Source: Mobula hypostoma
Taxonomy: Eukaryota
Direction: 5' to 3'
Assembly (NCBI RefSeq): GCF_963921235.1
Contig: NC_086107.1
Coordinates: 97,156,001-97,220,000, forward strand
Length of the DNA stretch: 64,000 nt
In this document: piece after piece, positions 9,301 through 57,720 of the stretch
Layout: every line of letters begins with the position of its first letter
Numbering within the stretch: position 1 is the stretch's first letter
Notes under the pieces: generated by a model
Database searches by the model: none
What the model was told of the DNA's origin: nothing
What the model saw: the letters and a program-made list of their open reading frames with translations, nothing else
Translations under genes and position numbers: made by a program

Positions 9301-9735
9301 TCTTGCTAACGCATCCACCTGGTAATGTGGCAACCAGAACTTTTGAAATATGCCATCAGCAGTCTAACCATTGCTTTGTACTATTGCAGCATGATGTTTC
9401 AACTCTTATTTTCAATCGTTTGGCCAATGAAAGCAAATGCCTTTTTCATAAGCACAATAGAATCAATCAAAGACCACAGGCAATGGGACGGATAAGCAAC
9501 CAATATTGAAGAGGCAGCAAACTGTGCAAGAAAAAGAAAAATAACTAAATAAGCAATACCTATTGAGAACATGAGATGAAGAGTCCTTGAAAGTGAGTCC
9601 ATAGGTTGTTGGAATGAATGATGGGGGTAAGTGAAGTTCAGCAAAGTTGCACTCCGAGGTCTTCTCTGTGTATATGCACTCCTGAGGTCCCTATTATTTC
9701 CTCAACATGTCCTACCTGAATTTGACCACCTAAAT

Positions 9736-15170: not shown

Positions 15171-16690
15171 GTTTCTTCTTCTTCTTCTCTGAGTTTTTAC
15201 GGCAGTTGGCATCCACATTGTTGCATTACTGCCATCTTCAGGATTTATTGTCCTTCACTGTCCATTCACTTTAAAGCCGTCTTTCCAGTCCTGTCGCCCT
15301 TAAAAAACTAAACAACCATTTCCTCCCCTGATCTCTCTCCCCACATTCCAATAAATCTTTTAACACTGTTCTCTACCAGTCCTATTTTGTGTAATCGTTG
15401 TAACATTTGTTGCCTTTCCTGTGCAAATTTCCAGCATGAAATAAGGATATGCTCTATTGTTTCAGTCTCCTGACGTAGATCGCAAAAACCTGTTGGATGC
15501 TTATTTATGATGGCCAGAGTGCCATTAAGGTTGCCGTGCCCAATTCTCAGTCTACTTATAATTACATGCTCCTTCCGCTTTACTCCCCTATTTCTTCCCA
15601 TATCTACTCTGTTCTGAATTGAATGTAAATGTCTTCCTTTTATTGCTCTATCCCAATGCTGCTGCCACTGTTGATTTATCCTTCTCCACACTATGCTCTT
15701 CCCCTCTGATTTTGATAGTTTAATATTGACCTCAATAGATCCTTTTTTGACGGCTGCTTTTGCCAGCCTATCTGCTGTCTCATTTCCCATAATACCCGAA
15801 TGTGCTGGAACCCACATGAATGTGATATTTTTGCTTTGTCTAGCCAGTCTTGAATTTGCAAACAGGATTTCATAAAGCAGATACTGGTGACCTCTAGCTG
15901 TACCCGCCTTAATGCTTGCAAGGGCCGATACAGAATCGCTACATATCACAAAATTATTAGAATCAACCTGCTCACTCCATTCTAGTGCTAACAATATGGC
16001 AAACATTTCAACTGCATATACACTCAAGCAATCAGGTGTTCTCTTGCTAATTTCCACTCGATAACTTGGTACAACAATTGCAGACCCTGTTGCACCTGTT
16101 TCTGGATCCTTTGATCCATCAGTAAAAATCTGTATACCTTTATACTTACATTCCCTATAACTATGATATTCACTGAGTATATCAGCCGTCTTATTACTGT
16201 GCTTAATCTTAAGCAATTCCAAATCTACAGAGGGAGTTTCTAATACCCAGAAAGGTCTGACAGGCCACACCACACTTGGACAAAACTCTTTATCGTATAC
16301 ACCCATATCTTTTGCTGTTTGCTCTCCTGTCCGGCCAAAACTTTCTTTTTGTGTCCTCTCCTTCTCCCGGCATGTCTGCAACACCCTTTTTGTAGGATGG
16401 CTATCACCATGCCCCCTTAAATTAATCCAGTAATTGGCCTCCAGCTGTTTACGCCGCAGCCCCAATGACATTTCATTTGCTTCAACTTGGAGTACACACA
16501 CTGGGGAAGGTCTAACCACTCCCAAGCACACTCTTAGAGCCCGAGCTTGCACGATATCCAGTTCTGCCAGCACAGATTTTGCTGCTGACCTGTATACAAT
16601 ACTTCCATAGTCTAATCTTGATCTTATTAATGCTACATAAATATACTTCAGTGATGCAAAATCAGCACCCCATTCCAATCCAGCAAGATC
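15171..16690 (-). mobile_element. 5'-truncated Nimb/I-group LINE
   Basis: RNase H-containing ORF2 remnant, GGCAGT...ACTGCC stem in the 3' UTR and (GAA)n tail. Confidence 0.85.
15308..16690 (-). CDS. Partial LINE ORF2: RT C-terminus, RNase H and degenerate CCHC
   Basis: ~460 open codons with ALIRSRLDYG, IFTDGSK, VEMFAI, CSDSVSAL, WVPAHSGIMGNETADRLAK and ETIEHILISC; no true start. Confidence 0.8.
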   Translation of the reverse strand, partial: DLAGLEWGADFASLKYIYVALIRSRLDYGSIVYRSAAKSVLAELDIVQARALRVCLGVVRPSPVCVLQVEANEMSLGLRRKQLEANYWINLRGHGDSHPTKRVLQTCREKERTQKESFGRTGEQTAKDMGVYDKEFCPSVVWPVRPFWVLETPSVDLELLKIKHSNKTADILSEYHSYRECKYKGIQIFTDGSKDPETGATGSAIVVPSYRVEISKRTPDCLSVYAVEMFAILLALEWSEQVDSNNFVICSDSVSALASIKAGTARGHQYLLYEILFANSRLARQSKNITFMWVPAHSGIMGNETADRLAKAAVKKGSIEVNIKLSKSEGKSIVWRRINQQWQQHWDRAIKGRHLHSIQNRVDMGRNRGVKRKEHVIISRLRIGHGNLNGTLAIINKHPTGFCDLRQETETIEHILISCWKFAQERQQMLQRLHKIGLVENSVKRFIGMWGERSGEEMVV

Positions 16691-16694
16691 CAGC

Positions 16695-18450
16695 AAGTTT
16701 TTTCAGATATATTAAGAGTAAAAAAGTGGATACTGTACTAGACTGCTGGAAAGTGACTCTGGAGAATTAGTAACGGGGGACCAAGAAACTACAACCAAAC
16801 TTATATATTTTCTTCAATCTACTCTGTGGAAGACACCAGCATAATGCCAGAAATTTGAGAGTGTCAGGGTGCAGAAGTGAGTGTGGTTGCTATTACTAAG
16901 GGGAAACTGAAAGGTCTGAAGGTAGATAAGTCACTTGGACCAGATGGACTACACCCCAGGGTTCTGAAAGAGGTTACTGAAGATATTGTGGAGGCATTAG
17001 TAGTAATCTTTCAACAACTACTAGATTCTGGCACGGTTCCAGAGGACTTGAAAATTGCAAAGTCACTCCACTCTTTAAGAAGGGAGGGAGGCAGAAGAAT
17101 GAGAACTATAGGCCAGTTAGCTTGACCTCAGTGGTTGGGAAGATGTTGGAGGTGATTTTTAAGAATGAGGTCTTCCAGGGCTCTTGGAGGGACATGATAA
17201 AATAGGCCAAAGTCAGCATGGTTTCCTTTTGCCTGACAAATCTCTTGGGATTCTTTGAGGAAGTAACAGGCAGGATAGACAAGGGACAGTCAATCAGTGA
17301 ATGCTGTTTACTTGGATTTTCAGAAGGCCTTTGACAAGGTGTTGCACATAAGGCTGCTGAACAAGATAAGAGCCCATTCTATTACAGAAAAATACTAACA
17401 CAGATAGAAGATTGACTGACTGGCAGGAGGTAGAGTGGGAATAAAGGGAACCTTTTCTGGTTTGCTGCCGGTGACTAGTGGAACCACTTCTTTTCACATC
17501 ATATATCAATGACTCGGGTGATGGAATTGATGGATTTGTGACCAAGTTTGTGGACAATATGAGAATAGGTAGAGGGGCAGATGGTGTTGAGGAAACAGAG
17601 AGTCTGCAGAAGGACTTAAACAGATTAGGAGAATGAGCAGAGAAGTGGCCGATGGAATACAATGTGGAGTAGTGTATGATCATGTACTTTGGGAGAAGAA
17701 ATGAAGGCATAGACTATTTTCTAAATGGGGAGAAAATTCAAAACTCAGAGGTGCAAAGGGATTTGGGAGTCCACCCATAGGGTTCCTGAAGGTTAACTTG
17801 CAAGTTGAGTCATTGGTAAAGAAGGCAAATGCGATGTTAGCATTCATTTCCAGTGGACTAGATTATAAAAGCAAACATGTAATGCTGAGGCTTCATAAGG
17901 TATTTGTCAGACCACATTGGGAGTATTGTGAGCAGCTTTGGGCCCTCATCTCAGAAAAGGTGTGCTGGCATGGAGAAGGTCTGGAGGAGGTTCAGGAGAA
18001 TGATTCAGGAATGAAAAGATTAACATATGAGGAGTGTTTGATGGCTCTGGGCCTGTGCGCTGGAGTTTAGAAAAGTAAAGGAGGATCTCATTGAAACCTA
18101 TCGAATATTGAAAGGCCTAGATAGAGTGAATGTGGAAAGAATGATGTTTCCTATAGTGGGTGAGTCTAGGACCAGAGGGCACAGCCTCAGAATAGAGAGA
18201 TATCCATTTAAAACAGAGATGAGGAGGAATTTTTAGCCAGAGGGAGATGAATCTGTGCAATTCATTGCTGCATTTGGCTGTGGAGGCCAAGTCATTGGGT
18301 ATATTTAAAGTGGAGATTGATAGGTTCTTGATTAGTCCAAGGTTACAGTCGAAGGTGGGAGATTGGGATTGAGTGGGATAATATTCAGCCATTAAGGAAT
18401 GGCAAAACAAATGTGATGGGATAAATAGCCTCATTCTGCTCCTATGTCTT
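16695..18450 (+). mobile_element. Degenerate CR1 ORF2 and 3' end
   Basis: KSLGPDGLHPRVLKE, YLDFQKAFD, KKANAMLAFI fragments with many frameshifts. Confidence 0.9.
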
Positions 18451-23695: not shown

Positions 23696-24691
23696 CACCA
23701 AACTTGGTCACTGAAACAATGAGTGTTTTGAAGCAGGTTGTTTTTCTCCCAGATAGTAATTTGTTTCTCTATAAATACAAGTCACTGACCTGGAGAGCTG
23801 TGACACGTCAATGGCTACGGGCTCTAACCTGCCAGAGTGTTCTCAGCTTCAAATATGAGACTAATACTGAATGTGAGAACAAGAGCTCCTGGTATATTGT
23901 CAAGTTCTGCTGTCAGGATCTGGACTTATTCAAGTTGACAGAAAGATGAAACAAAAGACAAAGAATGTTTATACTTACACTGCCTCAACATGACCATTGT
24001 CTCAAGACCACAGTAAACTACTTTCAGACTGCAGTGACTCTTGATGTTTTGAAACACTCCCAAGGATATGAATTTCACCATTGTCAATGAAAATTCCAAA
24101 TGGATCTGACAGCATTCTAGGCTCTTAGGTAATTGCATTCAAAATGAATATCGCATGAATTAGAAGGAGAGCTAGGAGGATTAAGGATGGGAAAGGCCTG
24201 CTCTTGGGTAGCACTTTCGAGAATCACAAAAAGCCTCACAGCCAAAGAAATAATTTTTGAAGCTGGGACACAGCTCATCTCATCACAGAAACCAGCCGCC
24301 CCTCCATGGATTGTGTCTATAGTTCCCTCTGCCCCAGTAAAGCAATCGACATAGTGAAAGCCCCTGGCCATTCTGGATATTATTTTTTCTCTATCAGGCC
24401 GAAGATATGATATTTGAAAGTATGTACACTCAGCTCAAGGATAGCCTTTACTCTGCTGTTACAATACTATTGATTGGATCCTTAGTATGATAAGAAAGAC
24501 TTCTGGCCTCGCAATCTACCTCTTTATGACCTTGCATCTCATTGTCCAAGTGCAGCTGGTACACTTTACTCCGTAGTTTGCTTTTGTTTTACCTTGTTCT
24601 ACCTCAATGTCTGGTGTAGTGATTTGATCCATATGTAAGGTATTCAAGACAAGCTTTATTATGCACTATTATCGTGTCAAAATGTACATCT

Positions 24692-24925
24692 GAGTGTCAA
24701 AATGGCTGTTGTGACACGTCTAGTGTGGTAGTGCAGTGAGTGGTGGTTGTCACTCTCACTTTCAGTTTCCAGCACTGGCTAGCAGTCTTGCGAAGAGGAG
24801 AGCTGAATGTGTAAGTCCCTCCCTGCCCGTACACAGCCCCTCCGCCAGCAAGCCTCAGATAGTGCCTCCTCACTGGGGACACACGGAAACTGAACTCCTT
24901 TCAGACCCAGGCTCAACTACAGAGG
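24692..24925 (+). ncRNA. Candidate HDV-like ribozyme (decayed)
   Basis: P1 24692-24698/24878-24884, P2 24853-24863/24916-24925, P3 GCC/GGG around L3 TCCTCACT, P1.1 GG, P4 CTGAA/TTCAG. Confidence 0.55.
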
Positions 24926-25318
24926 ATGGGGAGGAGGTCTGGCCCCTGCTCACTTACCACCCAGGCTCATGGTGTGTGGACATGCCCCGGTGCTTGTGAT
25001 CCAGATCCCCAGCTATGGGTAATTAGCTCCACTGCCTCGTGGGCAGCCTCGGGAGAGACGAAGGCTACGGGAGTAAACCCAGACAGCAAATCCGGAGTGG
25101 AGACCCTAAGGCGGCTGGACATCATTGAACATCCTTCCGGCAGCTCCTGGAACCAAGCTGGTGGAAATTGCTTCGTAAGCTTTCCTTTGGACTACACTGG
25201 TGAGGCTGAGAGGGGCATATTGACAACTGGGCATCTCAGGATCTCCATACCTTCCACCCAGGCTTGTGATGATCACCATCACCCATTGTCCATCAAGACA
25301 GATGGATGCCAACCAACT
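24692..25318 (+). mobile_element. RTE-derived non-autonomous element
   Basis: RTE-like GGCTACGGGAGTAAACCC segment and AGACAGATGGATGCCAACCAAC end; second partial copy at 57280-57600 (minus). Confidence 0.65.
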
Positions 25319-25629
25319 TTTAGGCTCTCTTCTTCTCATGTCCTCAACGTTTACTGCTTAATTATTTATTATTATTTTTCTCTTTTCTTTTATATTTTTC
25401 AGTTTGTTACTTTTTTTTGCACAATAGTTGTTGTCCATCCTGTTGGGTGAGATCTTTCATTGATTCTATTGTGTTTCCTGCAGCTGCTATGAATGCCCAC
25501 AAGAAAATGAATCTCAGGGTTGCATATGGTGACATATATGTACTTTGAAGATAATCCTTTCACTATATTTCAGTGACAATAATAAACCAATTCCAAATAT
25601 TGTAAGCTAATATATTCCCACAATGTGTG

Positions 25630-30200: not shown

Positions 30201-30703
30201 AGAAGGACAACCTGGGTTGGCAGGAGAAGATCATAATCCAGGACAGACTGCTTACCAAAATAGGACGTTGAGATTTTGTGTCTCTTGTGTTTGGCAGCAT
30301 GTAGTTGTAATCATCCTAGTATAATAATTGGGGAGTTGAAATGTAGGAGCCATGTATCTATTCTCTCCCATGTATTGTATTCTGTGTTGTGCATTTATTG
30401 TGGTAACTAGTCACATTAGAGCAGGGTATGGTAAAAGCGAAGGGAATAAGTCACGTATTCTTGCTTATTTCATGGCAGTTTGTAGCTTGGGACCGGCAGA
30501 GGTTGAATCTTTTGCTGACCACTGAGATAGCGCTCAATAATGTGTAACTGTAGTTTGCTGTTGCTAATAAAGGATCGAATAAAAGGTTCTACTTTTAGAG
30601 CAATCATTGGAGCTGTGGGCGCATCACACAAGTATGAAAGTCCGTACGGTCTCAGGCAAGCAGCAACTGTTTTGCTTTGTTTTGGATTACTTTTGCCACT
30701 GCA
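27270..30703 (+). mobile_element. Internally deleted BEL/Pao LTR retrotransposon
   Basis: LTRs 27270-27607 and 30342-30703 (TG...CA), TSD CACCT/CACCC, PPT-like ATTGGGGAGTTGAAA; gag-like SLPKREIQLFDGNPL and protease-region IELLIGVNVPEAL...PYAISTVLGW. Confidence 0.85.
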
Positions 30704-30928
30704 CACCCTGTCATCCTGTGTAGCTACTTTCAGGGAGCTATGAACTTGGACCCCAAGATCCCTCTGCTCTTCAACACTGTTAAGGGTCTTGCCCTTTTTA
30801 CATTTGATCTACCAAGGTACAACGCTTCATACTCGGACAGGTTAAACTCCATCTGCCATTTCTCTGCCCTATGTCCTGTTGTATTCTTTGCCAGTCACCT
30901 AGGCTATCCACAGCACCACCAATCTTGT

Positions 30929-32059
30929 AGAGTGGATAGGGGAGAACCAGTGGATGTGGTATATTTGGATTTTCAAAAGGCTTTTGACAAGGTCCCACAC
31001 AGGAGATTAGTGTGCAAACTTAAAGCACATGGTATTGGGGGTAAGGTATTGGTGTGGGTGGAGAATTGGTTAGCAGACAGGAAGCAAAGAGTGGGAATAA
31101 ACGGGACCTTTTCAGAATGGCAGGCGGTGACTAGTGGGGTACCGCAAGGCTCAGTGCTGGGACCCCAGTTGTTTACAATATATATTAATGACTTGGATGA
31201 GGGAATTAAATGCAGCATCTCCAAGTTTGCGGATGACACAAAGCTGGGTGGCAGTGTTAGCAGTGAGGAGGATGCTAAGAGGATGCAGGGTGACTTGGAT
31301 AGGTTGGGTGAGTGGGCAAACTCATGGCAGATGCAATTTAATGTGGATAAATGTGAAGTTATCCACTTTGGTGGCAAAAATAGGAAAACAGATTATTATC
31401 TGAATGGTGGCCGATTAGGAAAAGGGGAGGTGCAACGAGACCTGGGTGTCATTATACACCAGTCATTGAAAGTGGGCATGCAGGTACAGCAGGCGGTGAA
31501 AAAGGCGAACGGTATGCTGGCATTTATAGCGAGAGGATTCGAGTACAGGAGCAGGGAGGTACTACTGCAGTTGTACAAGGCCTTGGTGAGACCACACCTG
31601 GAGTATTGTGTGCAGTTTTGGTCCCCTAATCTGAGGAAAGACATCCTTGCCATAGAGGGAGTACAAAGAAGGTTCACCAGATTGATTCCTGGGATGGCAG
31701 GTCTTTCATATGAAGAAAGACTGGATGAACTGGGCTTGTACTCGTTGGAATTTAGAAGATTGAGGGGGGATCTGATTGAAACGTATAAGATCCTAAAGGG
31801 ATTGGACAGGCTAGATGCGGGAAGATTGTTCCCGATGTTGGGGAGGTCTAGAACGAGGGGTCACAGTTTGAGGATAGAGGGGAAGCCTTTTAGGACCGAG
31901 GTTAGGAAAAACTTCTTCACACAGAGAGTGGTGAATCTGTGGAATTCTCTGCCACAGCAAACTGTTGAGGCCAGTTCATTAGCTATGTTTAAAAGGAAGT
32001 TAGATATGGCCCTTGTGGCTACAGGGGTCAGGGGGTATGGAGGGAAGGCTGGGTTCTGA
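30929..32059 (+). CDS. Partial CR1 ORF2 reverse transcriptase (no true start)
   Basis: [32 protein letters not shown] motifs in one frame. Confidence 0.85.
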   Translation, partial: RVDRGEPVDVVYLDFQKAFDKVPHRRLVCKLKAHGIGGKVLVWVENWLADRKQRVGINGTFSEWQAVTSGVPQGSVLGPQLFTIYINDLDEGIKCSISKFADDTKLGGSVSSEEDAKRMQGDLDRLGEWANSWQMQFNVDKCEVIHFGGKNRKTDYYLNGGRLGKGEVQRDLGVIIHQSLKVGMQVQQAVKKANGMLAFIARGFEYRSREVLLQLYKALVRPHLEYCVQFWSPNLRKDILAIEGVQRRFTRLIPGMAGLSYEERLDELGLYSLEFRRLRGDLIETYKILKGLDRLDAGRLFPMLGRSRTRGHSLRIEGKPFRTEVRKNFFTQRVVNLWNSLPQQTVEASSLAMFKRKLDMALVATGVRGYGGKAGF

Positions 32060-39255: not shown

Positions 39256-40920
39256 TCTTTAACCACAGAATCAACCTGCGCAGCTGCTTTGAAAGTCCTA
39301 TAGACTCGGACCCAAAGATCCCTCTGATCCTCCACACTGCCAAGAGTTTTACCATTAATGCTATATTCTGCCATCATATTTGACCTACCAGAATGAACCA
39401 CTTTACACTTATCTGGGTTGAACTCCATCTGCCACTTCTCAGCTCAGTTTTGCAATCTATCAATGTCCCGCTATAACCTCTGACAGCCCTCCACACTATC
39501 CACAATACCTCCAACCTTTGTGTCATCAGCAAACTTACTAACCCATCCCTCCACTTCCTCATCCAGGTCATTTATAAAAATCACGAAGAGTAAGGGTCCC
39601 AGAACAGATCCCTGAGGCACACCGCTGGTCACCGACCACCATGCAGAATATGACCCGTCTACAACCACTCTTTGCCTTCTGTGGGCAAGCCAGTTCTGGA
39701 TCCACAAAGCAATGTCCCCTTTGATCCCATGCCTCCTTACTTTCTCAATAAGCCTTGCATGGGGTACCTTATCAAATGCCTTGCTGAAATCCATATATAC
39801 TACATCTACTGCTCTTCCTTCATCAATGTGTTTAGTCACATCCTCAAGAAATTCAATCTGGCTCATAAGGCATGACTTGCCTTTGACAAAGCCATGCTGA
39901 CTCTTCCTGATTATATTATACCTCTCCAAATGTTCATACATCCTGCCTCTCAGGATCTTCTCCATCAACTTACCAACCACTGAAATAAGACTCAGTGGTA
40001 TAATTTCCTGGGCTATCTCTACTCCCTTTCTTGAATAAAGGAACAATATCTGCAACCCTCCGATCCTCCAGAAGCTCTCCCGTCCCCAGTGATGATGCAA
40101 AGATCATTGCCAGAGTCTCAGCAATCTCCTCCCTCACCTTCCACATTAGCCTGGGGTACATCTCTCCGGTCCCGGCGACTTATCCAACTTGATGCTTTCC
40201 AAAAGCTCCAGCACATCCTCTTTCTTAATATCTACATGCTCAAGCTTTTCAGTCTGCTGCAAGTCATCACTACAATCATCAAGATCCTTTTCCATAGTGA
40301 ATACTGAAGTTAAGTATTCATTAAGTACCTCTGTTATTTCCTCCGGTTCCATACACACTTTCCCACTGTCACACTTGATAGGTCCTATTCTTTCACATCT
40401 TATCCTCTTGCTCTTCATGTACTTGTACAATGCCTTGGGGTTTTCCTTAATCCTGCCCACTAATGCCTTCTCATGGCCCCTTCTGGCTCTCCTAACTTCC
40501 TTCATAAGCTCCTTCCTGCTAGCCTTATAATCTTCTAGATCTCTAACATTACCTAGCTCTCTGAACCTTTTGTGAGCTCTTCTTTTCTTCTTGACGAGAT
40601 TTATTACAGCCTTTGTACACTACGGTTCCTGTACCCTACCATAACTTCCCTGTCTCATTGGAACGTACCTATGCAGAACTCCACACAAATATCCCCTGAA
40701 CATTTGCCACATTTCTTCCATACTTTTCCCTGAGAACATCTGTTCCCAATTTAAGCTTCCAATTTCCTGCCTGATAGCCTCATACTCCAATTGAACGCTT
40801 TTCTAACTTGTCTGTTCCTATCTCTCTCCAATGCTATTGTAAAGGAGATAGAATTATGATCACTATCTCCAAAATGCTCTCCCACTGAGAGATCTGACAC
40901 CTGACCAGGTTAATTTCCCA
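39255..40920 (-). mobile_element. CR1 ORF2 fragment
   Basis: ORFs 39471-40100 ([23 protein letters not shown]) and 40146-40505. Confidence 0.92.
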
Positions 40921-54002: not shown

Positions 54003-55900
54003 GAGTTACTGTCTTTGCCTGGTCTCAGCGATGCTAGGCCTTCGGAACTAATGGACCACATGCTGTCTCTCCTGGGAAATCACCTTCCTTGTTTCATTTT
54101 GAAAGGACTCTACATGCAGCAAATACCTTAACAAGTTCGCATAGCCTTGCTAATGTACCAATGAAAGACCACGGGGAGCTTGCTAAAGTGGCTGATAGTC
54201 CACACTCAGCGAGGAAATAGTGCATCTTTCCTCCTTCTTTCTCTACCTCAATAAGCCCAGTCAGCAAGACCCCCAACGTAAGGATGCCCACACCAGCTGG
54301 GTCTGTGTTTCTACCACGTTCGCAATGGTACAAATACTAGGAAGTGCCAACCACCTTGCAGCTTCAACAGTGCCAGCGCACCGGGACATCAGAAGTCCAT
54401 GAACACCACGGGTTCCGGCTGCCAGGGTTGTCTTCTGTTCATTATGGACACCCTTTCAGGGCGACACTTCCTGTGTGACGTGATTACTGCCGGCATCGCC
54501 TATTGATGAGAAGACCAAGAGCAAAGGAACCTTACCAACAACGGCAGGATCAAGACTTGTAGGACATGACGGGTGAAGCCCTTCTTCAGTGGGTGACATT
54601 ACACATGGGACTTCGTTCAGGCTAAAATGGCTAGACCTCTGCTCGGTGCAGGTTTCCTGTGTGCTCAAGGACTGCAGCCTGTGTGGAGTGCCAGTGGGAA
54701 AAAAATTAACTGTCATGTCCAGGCGCCCTTGGCACCTGTTCAGGTCCCTGACGACAGCTTGACCTTGTCCTGTGGACCTTTTTGGTCCTCTTCTCCCCCC
54801 CCCCCCAACGGTTTCACACACCACCTTACCACAGTGGGCTGTACCACCGGGTGGCTAGAAGTCGTCCCTCTAGCATCGATAATGGCCACAGAAGTGGCTC
54901 AGAGATTCATCAGCTTCTGGGTTGCTCATTTTGGCATCCCATCTGATATTTCCTCCCACTGTGGTCCTCAATTCAGATCAGGCCTTTGGTCTGTGATGGC
55001 CCAGAAACTCAGCGTTAGGCTACGTCACACCACGGCGAATCACCCGGAGTCCAAAGGCCTATGCGACTGGTTTCACCACTTCTTAAAGGCTGCTCTGAGA
55101 GCTTCCCTATGGATGAGTGTGGGCATGACCATCTCCCGTGGGTCCAGCTGGGACTCAGAACAGCTCCAAAAGAGAGCTTGCAGGCATCCAGGGCCGAATT
55201 GGTGTACAGACAGCCATTGTGAGTGCTAGGTGATTTTATCCTTGACACCATGACTGCCAGGTTGGCCTCTTAACAGCATGCCACCCTCCTCAGTAAATTC
55301 AATTCCTTTGCACCTATTCCTACCTCTCATCATGGCGTACAGCACTCTTGGGTTCCTGTTGACTTGAATTCTGCTTTGTTTGTGTTTGTCCACCATGATG
55401 CCCACCAACTTCCCCTTAGGCCCCCTACGCGATGGCCTGTTCTGCATTGTGAAATGGAGCAAAAAGACTTTTATCACATATAAGAGGGGTAAACCAGAAT
55501 GTGTTTCGGTAGATCACCTTAAGCCAACCCACCAATATTTGAAGGATTCCGCTACCATGTCCCTGCTGTCACGACAGGACCATGAGCATGCCAACACACC
55601 TTTGGACGAGACAGAGGCATCTGCTGTTCCTCCACCCATGGAACATAGGAACTGGGCTCCAGACAGTCTCACAAGGCCGGTTTCGGTGAGCGGGGGGGGC
55701 GGTAAGCCTGTATTGGGTAACATAATTGGTGGAATTCACAGCCACTGACATTGAGTTGGGGTTCACTTTAAGAGGATGCTCTGACGTGATGATGTAATTA
55801 CTGTACGTAAAGTACTTTTTCCACGCTCCGTGCTCAGTTTTGGTGTTCGGTAAATGACTTACTACGGTTTCTCTTAAGCATAAAATGTCTCCGCCATTTA
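54003..55900 (+). mobile_element. Degenerate, internally deleted Gypsy LTR retrotransposon
   Basis: gag-like RPSELMDHML, protease-like LFIMDTLSG, integrase WVAHFGIPSDISSHCGPQF...HTTANHPESKG, VSVDHLKP, G-rich PPT near 55690. Confidence 0.8.
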
Positions 55901-56829: not shown

Positions 56830-57720
56830 AGCAAATTGGAAACAGGCCCTTCTTTAGCTGGAGTGTAGAATATAAGAGCACGGAGGTTTTTGTGCAACTT
56901 TCTAAAACACTGTTCAGGCCACAGCTGGAATGTCATGTGCAGTTCTGGTCACATTATTGTGGAAAGGATGTGACTTCAGTGGAGGGTGTTCAGTGGAGAT
57001 TCACCAGGATGTTGCTTAGGATGAAAGATTGGATAGGCGAGATGTAATTTCCTTGGAGCAAGGACACTGAGGAGGGAACTTGATAGACGGGTACAAGATA
57101 GCGAGGAGAAAAGACAGGGTAGGTGGTAGAAAGCCTTTTCCTTTAGCAGAGCTGTCTAAAACCAGAGGGAATAAGTTTAGGTTAAGAAGCAAAAGGTTTA
57201 GAGAGGATCTGAGGAACAGTTTATCCATCTTTGTGGCTGTATTCTGAAATGCGAACCTGAGAAGGTGGTGGAAACAGGTAGTTGGCATCCATCTGTCTCG
57301 AAGGACAATGAGTGATGATCATCAACACAAGCCTGGCCGGAAGGTATGGAGATCCTGAGATGCCCAGTTGTCAAGATCCCCATCTCGGCCTCACCAGTGA
57401 AGTGCAAAGGAAAGCTTATGAAGCCATACGTTTGACACAAGCTTGGCTGCAGGAGCTGCTGGAAGGATGTTCAATGACGTCCAGCCGCCTTAGGGGCTCC
57501 ACTCCGGATTTGCTGTCTGGGTTTACTCCCGTAGCCTTTGTCTCTCCCGAGGCTGCCCACAAGGCAGTGAGTCTACTTACCCACAGCTGGGGATCTGGTT
57601 CACTCCTTGAAGTAGGTACTCTCACAAGATTTAAGAAGCATTTGGACAAGCACATGAATCACCAAGGCTTTGTAGACCATGGACGACTAAGTGCTGGTAA
57701 ATGGGATTGCTATGACTTAG
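56830..57720 (+). mobile_element. Old CR1 3' fragment
   Basis: Decayed RPQLE..VQFWS and FTRML segments; interrupted at 57280-57600. Confidence 0.75.
57280..57600 (-). mobile_element. RTE-derived non-autonomous element, 5'-truncated copy
   Basis: Reverse complement of ~24995-25318. Confidence 0.75.

Follow-up and report, generated by a model that had tools for sequence, protein, structure and literature searches.

The first ~234 nt of a repeat family in the genome of Mobula hypostoma probably descend from a genuine HDV-like self-cleaving ribozyme, which the founding sequence of the family would have carried and which would have made its 5' end; comparison of the copies gives this reading a somewhat better than even chance. 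One copy lies in the window, the whole stretch of 64,000 nt that was analysed, and this window copy is with high probability an old and inactive fossil of the family ribozyme. Taken alone, its resemblance to HDV is no better than chance, whereas at the level of the family the resemblance is above chance.

A search of the 3.48-Gb, 200-contig genome with window:24600-25400 returned 3555 first-look candidates, and the best 40 of these 3555 were scored at 84-88% identity, with a query span of ~95 to 716-718 in all of them. The 39 scored matches other than the window copy start at query positions 83-108, which places the element start at ~24694 of the window and bears out the apparent element start named by an earlier reading made from the letters alone (the sequence-only reading hereafter). 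Since 40/40 scored matches stop at the same two boundaries, the element was delimited as window 24694-25317 on the plus strand, where the search and the alignments identify a full-length copy of a ~630-bp non-coding retroposon family. Identity to the majority sequence of the family is 90.0% for the window copy and 79-95% for the family copies overall.

The element closes with the tail CCAACCAAC (25309-25317, plus strand), and in other copies this place is taken by a (CCAA)n-like microsatellite of variable length that is followed by the target-site duplication. Among 57 unique copies, a script search detected such duplications, 9-14 nt long, in 26, of which a few are probably spurious. All 32 sampled genome matches to the family 3' end (12 to the 3' 140 nt and 20 to 62 nt) turned out to be the same element, 5'-truncated at various points, and a second copy in the window (57273-57603, minus strand) is likewise 5'-truncated, lacks the ribozyme region and matches 24996-25321 at 87.9%. 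A convincing ORF was absent from the frames of the family majority. Dispersed copies, common ends, target-site duplications, 5' truncation, a repeat tail and the absence of coding capacity are the marks of a non-autonomous non-LTR retroposon copied by a LINE enzyme, and the family was therefore classed as such.

A 174-aa ATG-led ORF at 24926-25450 (plus strand), which starts directly after the putative P2' strand, was rejected as an artefact: CpG decay produced its ATG, for which the family majority has ACG, and the ORF also overruns the element end and has no Pfam match. At the 3' end, folds into a stem-loop differed among copies, with z-scores from -2.4 to +1.5, and no claim is made for such a structure. 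A different repeat family abuts the 3' end of the element at 25316-25564 and occurs again at 1125-1378 and 9450-9594, with 67-70% identity among the three. Contigs from four sequencing runs of two organisms were also searched with L007:1480-2160, a locus with a family copy, and 158-352 contigs per run matched the family at >=80% identity, so the family is abundant in the material of two organisms. In these contigs of uncertain kind (RNA or DNA), family copies were many, yet no starts, ends or new core variants were found.

All of the ribozyme segments listed by the sequence-only reading were found in the window copy, on the plus strand and at the positions given for them, when the sequence was read directly. 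The P1 5' strand (24692-24698) reads GAGTGTC in the window copy and TGGTGTC in the family majority, and its canonical pairing with P1' is confined to GTGTC (24694-24698). J1/2 (24699-24852, ~154 nt) forms a closed multi-helix domain in the family, and its outer helix, GGTTGTTGT with ACAGCAAGCC, joins P1 and P2. The P2 5' strand (24853-24863) is CCTCAGATAGT in the window copy and CCTCATGTAGT in the majority, which gives 10 pairs with one bulged A. P3, L3 and P3' (24864-24877) read GCC (24864-24866), TCCTCACT (24867-24874) and GGG (24875-24877) in the window copy and GCC, TCCTCGCT and GGC in the majority. They are followed at 24878-24886 by P1', GACACAC (24878-24884), and by GG (24885-24886), the 3' side of P1.1, which pairs with the CC of L3. 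P4 (24890-24910) has the majority sequence CTGA-AC-TCC-TTTC-GGA-C-TCAG with 7 pairs; the letters of the shorter P4 drawn before, CTGAA (24890-24894) with TTCAG (24900-24904), are present as well, and amount to an alternative pairing of the same stretch. J4/2 (24912-24915) reads CTCA in the window copy and CTGA in the majority, with the candidate catalytic C at 24912, and the P2 3' strand ACTACAGAGG (24916-24925) completes the motif.

The window copy forms 23 of the 29 pairs of the HDV model, and forcing the model on it costs ~15 kcal/mol (-57.5 against -72.3 for its own optimum). The hairpin GTGTCA/TGACAC (24694-24717), which had been pointed out as a competitor of P1, is present and belongs to this minimum-energy fold. 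A G-to-A change in L3 and a G-G mismatch in P3 break the L3/P3 arrangement typical of HDV ribozymes, and two mismatches in P2, two in P4 and a G-to-C change in J4/2 complete the damage; together these defects support the earlier guess that this copy is inactive. The same L3 G-to-A change abolished cleavage in the Nasonia R2 ribozyme, as described in PMC3774820. At gathering score, Rfam 15 had no match in the window, and within 24400-25400 relaxing the threshold to E<=10 brought up nothing of HDV type.

A different picture emerged from the family majority. Alignment A1 comprised 26 full-length copies, including the window copy, which were selected by overall likeness to the window alone. From P2 through P2', 7 positions set the window copy apart from the majority of the 25 other copies, and at 7/7 of these the majority lies closer to the HDV model: two P2 pairs, one G-C pair of P3 and two P4 pairs are restored, so that five of the differences turn a mismatch into a pair, L3 changes from A to G and becomes UCCUCGCU, and J4/2 changes from C to G and becomes CUGA. 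The majority core thus reads P2 CCUCAUGUAGU, P3 GCC, L3 UCCUCGCU, P3' GGC, P1' GACACAC, GG, AAA, P4, G, CUGA and P2' ACUACAGAGG; it forms 27 of the 29 model pairs and runs through the nested double pseudoknot in the order P1, J1/2, P2, P3, L3, P3', P1', P1.1, P4, J4/2, P2'. The 3-bp P3, the U...G and the C(s) for P1.1 within L3 and the G(G) after P1' are all in place, and the stretch GCC UCCUCGCU GGC is the same as in the printed HDV sequence. Deriving a family consensus had been suggested as a check on the motif, and it restored P2, P3, L3 and J4/2; P1 remained unrestored, because the two pairs adjoining the cut are mismatched in most copies.

The fit holds across individual copies. Over the 26 copies, 84.5% of cells are paired, and sliding the partners by 1-3 columns lowers the share to 34.5-37.8%; the two P1.1 pairs are standard in 25/26 and 21/26 copies. 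A C-N-R-A sequence adjoining P2' is the J4/2 motif that contains the catalytic C. The majority CUGA fits this motif, for which HDV has CGAA, and the position corresponding to 24914 is G in 25/25 other copies and C in the window copy. Inside the core, only the CpG pair of the P4 loop varies by >=15%, in a sample of which half was chosen for an exact core. Counted over the genome, the 19-mer of the majority core occurs 153 times and the 27-mer 35 times, with 0 occurrences of the reversed controls, and the variant 19-mer of the window copy occurs 3 times.

A generic HDV core descriptor was then applied. It required P3 to have 3 bp, L3 to measure 7-8 nt and include CC, P1' to be 7 nt long and run into GG, and C-N-R-A to adjoin a P2' of >=6 pairs abutting P3. 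The descriptor had 0 matches on both strands of the window. In the fetched loci, 204,294 bases in total, it had 19, every one at the ribozyme site of the family and 0 elsewhere; nine of these came from the 29 loci L002-L030, which were unselected for the core, and ten from loci chosen for an exact core. The descriptor fails on the window copy itself and succeeds on copies of its family, at that one site. A purely accidental likeness of a single decayed repeat, meaningless for the family, would account for the failure of the window copy against both Rfam and the descriptor. Such a coincidence is barely credible against the 7/7 core differences that the majority improves, the 153 genomic occurrences of the 19-mer and the confinement of the descriptor to one site in 204 kb.

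Two further checks gave no support. The covariance models of Rfam 15 returned no HDV-type match at E<=10 in the window, in 19 better copies or in the 96-nt core of the L007 copy; the 154-nt J1/2 and the narrowness of the models may explain this. A covariation score as high as that of the family was reached by 96 of 500 shuffles, and there was no covariation beyond that of the shuffles. The copies are neutral decay products of one source, so covariation is not expected among them, and the fold gains no support from that side. A search for a second family with the same P3 and L3 and another P1' gave 9 genome matches, all of which were mutated copies of the same retroposon family.

In the near-majority copies at L007 and L009, the 234-nt RNA that runs from base 1 up to and including P2' folds at minimum energy, with no constraint imposed, into a structure that holds the P2, P3 and P4 of the model. 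With 15-100 nt of downstream sequence added to the L007 copy, the model lies 0-3.1 kcal/mol from the optimum (P1 and P1.1 excluded, as nested folding cannot hold them). RNAalifold on the 26 copies placed a 9-pair helix, columns 23-31 with 181-190, after P1 and before P2, where it closes the J1/2 domain. A closed and structured J1/2 of this kind speeds up large HDV-like ribozymes such as drz-Agam-2-1, as described in PMC4908430. Competing helices were also seen, namely a hairpin GUGUCA/UGACGC at the 5' end and a pairing of CCUCCUCG with CGGGGAGG just downstream. At majority positions ~24-27 (the region of 24714-24718 in the window), copies read TGCG, CACG, CGCG or TGTG, which fits an ancestral CGCG; given this ancestral state, the founder also had the 5' hairpin GUGUCA/UGACGC in competition with P1.

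A recognisable full 5' start was present in 56 of the 78 copies examined, with GTGTC intact in 34/56. The two bases ahead of GTGTC were TG in 27/56, with T at -2 in 33/56 and G at -1 in 38/56, and no conserved sequence was seen upstream of TGGTGTC in the copies examined for the 5' start. Among the 26 copies with a target-site duplication, its edge lay within -2 to +2 nt of GTGTC in 17. These fixed starts and duplication edges imply that the family RNA began at a fixed base, which is where an HDV-type ribozyme would cut; in the copy alignments and by their duplications, full-length copies begin ~2 nt or less from the predicted cut, as the sequence-only reading had anticipated. The conserved 5' end TGGTGTC is 7 nt long, the same length as P1' before GG, which sets the register without a free parameter. 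Many duplications had G, GG or TGG as their last bases, a hint of microhomology with an RNA beginning UGGUGUC.

An 11-nt repeat was observed next to this start in the window copy. The sequence GTGTCAAAATG (24694-24704) occurs a second time at 24674-24684 (plus strand), 20 nt upstream of the element start; by my own estimate, a repeat of this kind within 30 nt is far beyond chance, and it may be a junction duplication or the result of a template jump at insertion. The upstream repeat would supply a second P1 strand.

P1 itself is the weak point of the model. Its pairs 3-7 are standard in 20-26 of the 26 copies, and pairs 1 and 2, at the cut, in 7/26 and 2/26. The majority accordingly has five Watson-Crick pairs, GUGUC/GACAC, with the two cut-side pairs mismatched, and a perfect GTGTGTC was seen in 2 copies only (L043 and L098). 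P1 can also be drawn with 7 pairs by bulging an A and placing a U-G wobble at the cut, at a loss of ~1 kcal/mol in stability relative to the 5-pair form. As described in PMC3774820, mismatches in P1 are uncommon and linked to loss of cleavage in vitro, and one active R2 ribozyme has a P1 of 4 nt.

One way round the irregular cut site would be a real ribozyme with another P1. An internal GUGUGGU (majority ~33-39) can pair with the active-site end of P1' through 5 contiguous pairs, one of them a G-C at the cut, and a wobble, and the resulting cleavage would fall ~32 nt (31-38) within the element. Unlike the terminal P1, this internal strand offers canonical pairs at the cut site. I consider this very improbable. 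The first ~38 nt are kept in the copies, with the full 5' start in 56/78, so the transposing RNA was not cut at ~32, and by my own estimate a 5-nt match is expected by chance about once per two tries in 150 GT-rich nt.

A more serious rival holds that the motif is a relic or look-alike and that the start of the RNA was set by an internal promoter, of the Pol II initiator type or of Pol III; I regard this as unlikely, but as a reading with real points in its favour. The mismatched cut-side pairs of the majority P1 are among these, as is the extra or ambiguous G ahead of GTGTC in many copies (the G at -1 noted above). A G ahead of the element start could be a cap that was copied by the reverse transcriptase, as described for L1. 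The damaged-core copies are a third point: the window copy and the L002 copy, ~340 kb upstream of it, have ~20 derived changes in common, unrelated flanks and the usual 5' end. Four of their common changes harm the core, namely the L3 G-to-A and a single change each in P2, P3' and P4, and the combination of common derived changes with unrelated flanks means that at least one transposition occurred from a source with a damaged core. A subfamily with these four changes still made copies with the same 5' end, which favours a promoter. The common changes mark the window copy and L002, as a candidate grouping, as a minor subfamily. L094 and L095 have only the L3 A and the P3' G in common with the two.

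As to the promoter itself, the majority carries an A-box-like TAGTGTAGTGG at ~position 37, with one mismatch to the box consensus, and is without TTTT. An A box at +37 is too distant from the start for a type-2 promoter, however, no B box was found within 2 mismatches, and TTTT was absent from 1560 of 5000 shuffles too. ARAGORN found 0 tRNA in 10 copies, and no tRNA-type Rfam match was obtained at E<=10 in 19 copies. A tRNA-derived Pol III SINE was rejected on these grounds, there being no tRNA head by ARAGORN or Rfam, no B box and the A-box-like motif only at ~+37. Against a look-alike stands the low probability that chance would produce a core in HDV order, a 15-nt identity with HDV and a complement of P1' exactly at the first bases of the family. 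A promoter and a ribozyme occur in one 5' segment in L1Tc, a precedent described in PMC3383444; by analogy, a Pol II start within the element and a ribozyme could both be present here.

In the mode of propagation that follows from the preferred reading, a genuine ribozyme in the founder, a source copy would be transcribed within a longer RNA, from a transcription source that I infer. The ribozyme would then cut directly 5' of P1, leaving an RNA that starts at the first base of the element with a 5'-OH. The reverse transcriptase of a LINE would prime at the (CCAA)n-like tail and copy this RNA into a new site, and the insertion would leave target-site duplications and, often, a 5'-truncated copy. 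Catalysis is the proposed step in this scheme, and the putative LINE partner its proposed enzyme; the family with its ends, duplications and truncations, and the fit of its majority to the model, are what was observed.

The sequence-only reading had described the element as RTE-derived and copied by an RTE. Its picture of a non-autonomous element that a LINE mobilises and that opens with an HDV-type motif is supported, and the attribution to RTE is not supported: 30/30 loci with an exact core and 32/32 matches to the 3' end, a small sample drawn from the best 40 per search, were the short element itself and no LINE. Two apparent links to a LINE were rejected. At L051, similarity to the family is lost past ~200, and this proved to be a family copy broken up by other sequence; no RT ORF was present over 9 kb. 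Of three copies that break at position 507, two were mutual duplicates, and the upstream sequence of the third was unrelated. The window also contains retroelement-remnant ORFs (RNase H, two of reverse transcriptase and a weak integrase core) at 15308-16696 (minus strand), 30677-32059 (plus), 39471-40100 (minus) and 54627-55229 (plus), none of which carries the 3'-terminal 19-mer of the family.

It is established that non-LTR elements and some few of their non-autonomous derivatives carry HDV-like ribozymes at the 5' end (R2, RTE, L1Tc/NARTc, SIDEs), and a shark/ray retroposon with such a ribozyme would therefore extend a known theme. I found no publication linking HDV-like ribozymes to cartilaginous fishes; the supplements of Ruminski 2011 and Webb 2009 may bear on novelty. 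What would be new in full is a high-copy, SIDE-like retroposon of a vertebrate with its 5' end made by an HDV-type ribozyme whose cut site is unusual, with U instead of G and, next to it, a bulged A and a reversed U-G wobble or else two non-Watson-Crick pairs, and whose 15-nt P3/L3 core is that of human HDV. This full combination is a speculative proposal that I would hold to be doubtful. If active, such a ribozyme would widen the P1 rules for the HDV ribozyme class and serve as a natural test of the smallest number and the greatest irregularity of pairs that P1 can have, besides giving a vertebrate example with a large structured J1/2. It would also offer delta-type agents a possible origin for their ribozyme in a vertebrate retroelement, and the 15-nt core in common with HDV bears on the origin of deltavirus ribozymes. 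For annotation, a ribozyme would explain one exact 5' end in thousands of copies without a recognisable promoter.

Several known systems parallel the family. R2 elements are non-LTR elements whose 5' ribozymes (Eickbush, Burke and Eickbush 2013, PMC3774820) resemble that of the family in their HDV-like fold and long J1/2; in active silkmoth R2 ribozymes J1/2 measures 216-498 nt, and the distance from P1 to P1' reaches >700 nt (as described in PMC3774820). A variable P4, a conserved CCUCCUCG core and variation at the 5' junction are also common to both in the published descriptions (PMC3774820; the core also PMC5035012), and CCUCCUCGUGG / CCUCCUCG is the most conserved motif of R2 ribozymes (PMC5035012). 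R2 as described in PMC3774820 is autonomous, inserts only into 28S rDNA and often has 28S bases in P1, whereas the family is non-coding and dispersed, with duplications of 9-14 nt. The closest concept is that of the R2 SIDEs and the R2/R1 hybrid SIDEs (Eickbush and Eickbush 2012, PMC3414825), which combine a 5' HDV-like ribozyme with the 3' end of a LINE; the hybrids indicate, by the account in PMC3414825, that a ribozyme module can use the machinery of another LINE. SIDEs are there described as rare, confined to Drosophila rDNA and of known parents (PMC3414825), whereas the family is high-copy, genome-wide and vertebrate, and no parent LINE was found among the sampled loci.

Three other systems match in part. 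In trypanosomes, the autonomous L1Tc and the non-autonomous NARTc share the 5' HDV-like ribozyme Pr77-L1TcRz (PMC3185411, PMC3383444), which is described as a compact 77 nt and works within polycistronic transcription, unlike the family. RTE-clade elements (Ruminski et al. 2011, as cited in PMC3774820 and PMC6765202) are promoter-less non-LTR elements with 5' HDV-like processing and microsatellite-like tails; in the sampled loci, no RTE or other LINE with the ends of the family was found. Large HDV-like ribozymes such as drz-Agam-2-1 (Webb et al. 2016, PMC4908430) have a large and stable peripheral J1/2 domain that pinches P1 and P2 together, as in the family. The likeness is one of architecture; the activity of drz-Agam-2-1 was measured, whereas that of the family is predicted.

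The HDV genomic ribozyme itself, in the 84-nt synthetic version described in PMC10711553, differs from the family in several respects: J1/2 is 3-4 nt in HDV and ~154 nt in the family, HDV has a G-U wobble at the cut where the family has U and G next to 5 canonical P1 pairs, P2 is longer and bulged in the family, P4 is unrelated, and the one is a circular RNA agent and the other a genomic repeat. The order of elements and the junctions are nevertheless the same as in the family majority. In both, P2 abuts P3, P3' abuts P1', a 7-nt P1' is followed by GG, and J4/2 reads GGC-N-R-A beside P2' (PMC10711553). The 15 nt GCCUCCUCGCUGGCG, which span P3, L3, P3' and the first base of P1', are identical between the family majority and the HDV ribozyme as printed there (PMC10711553).
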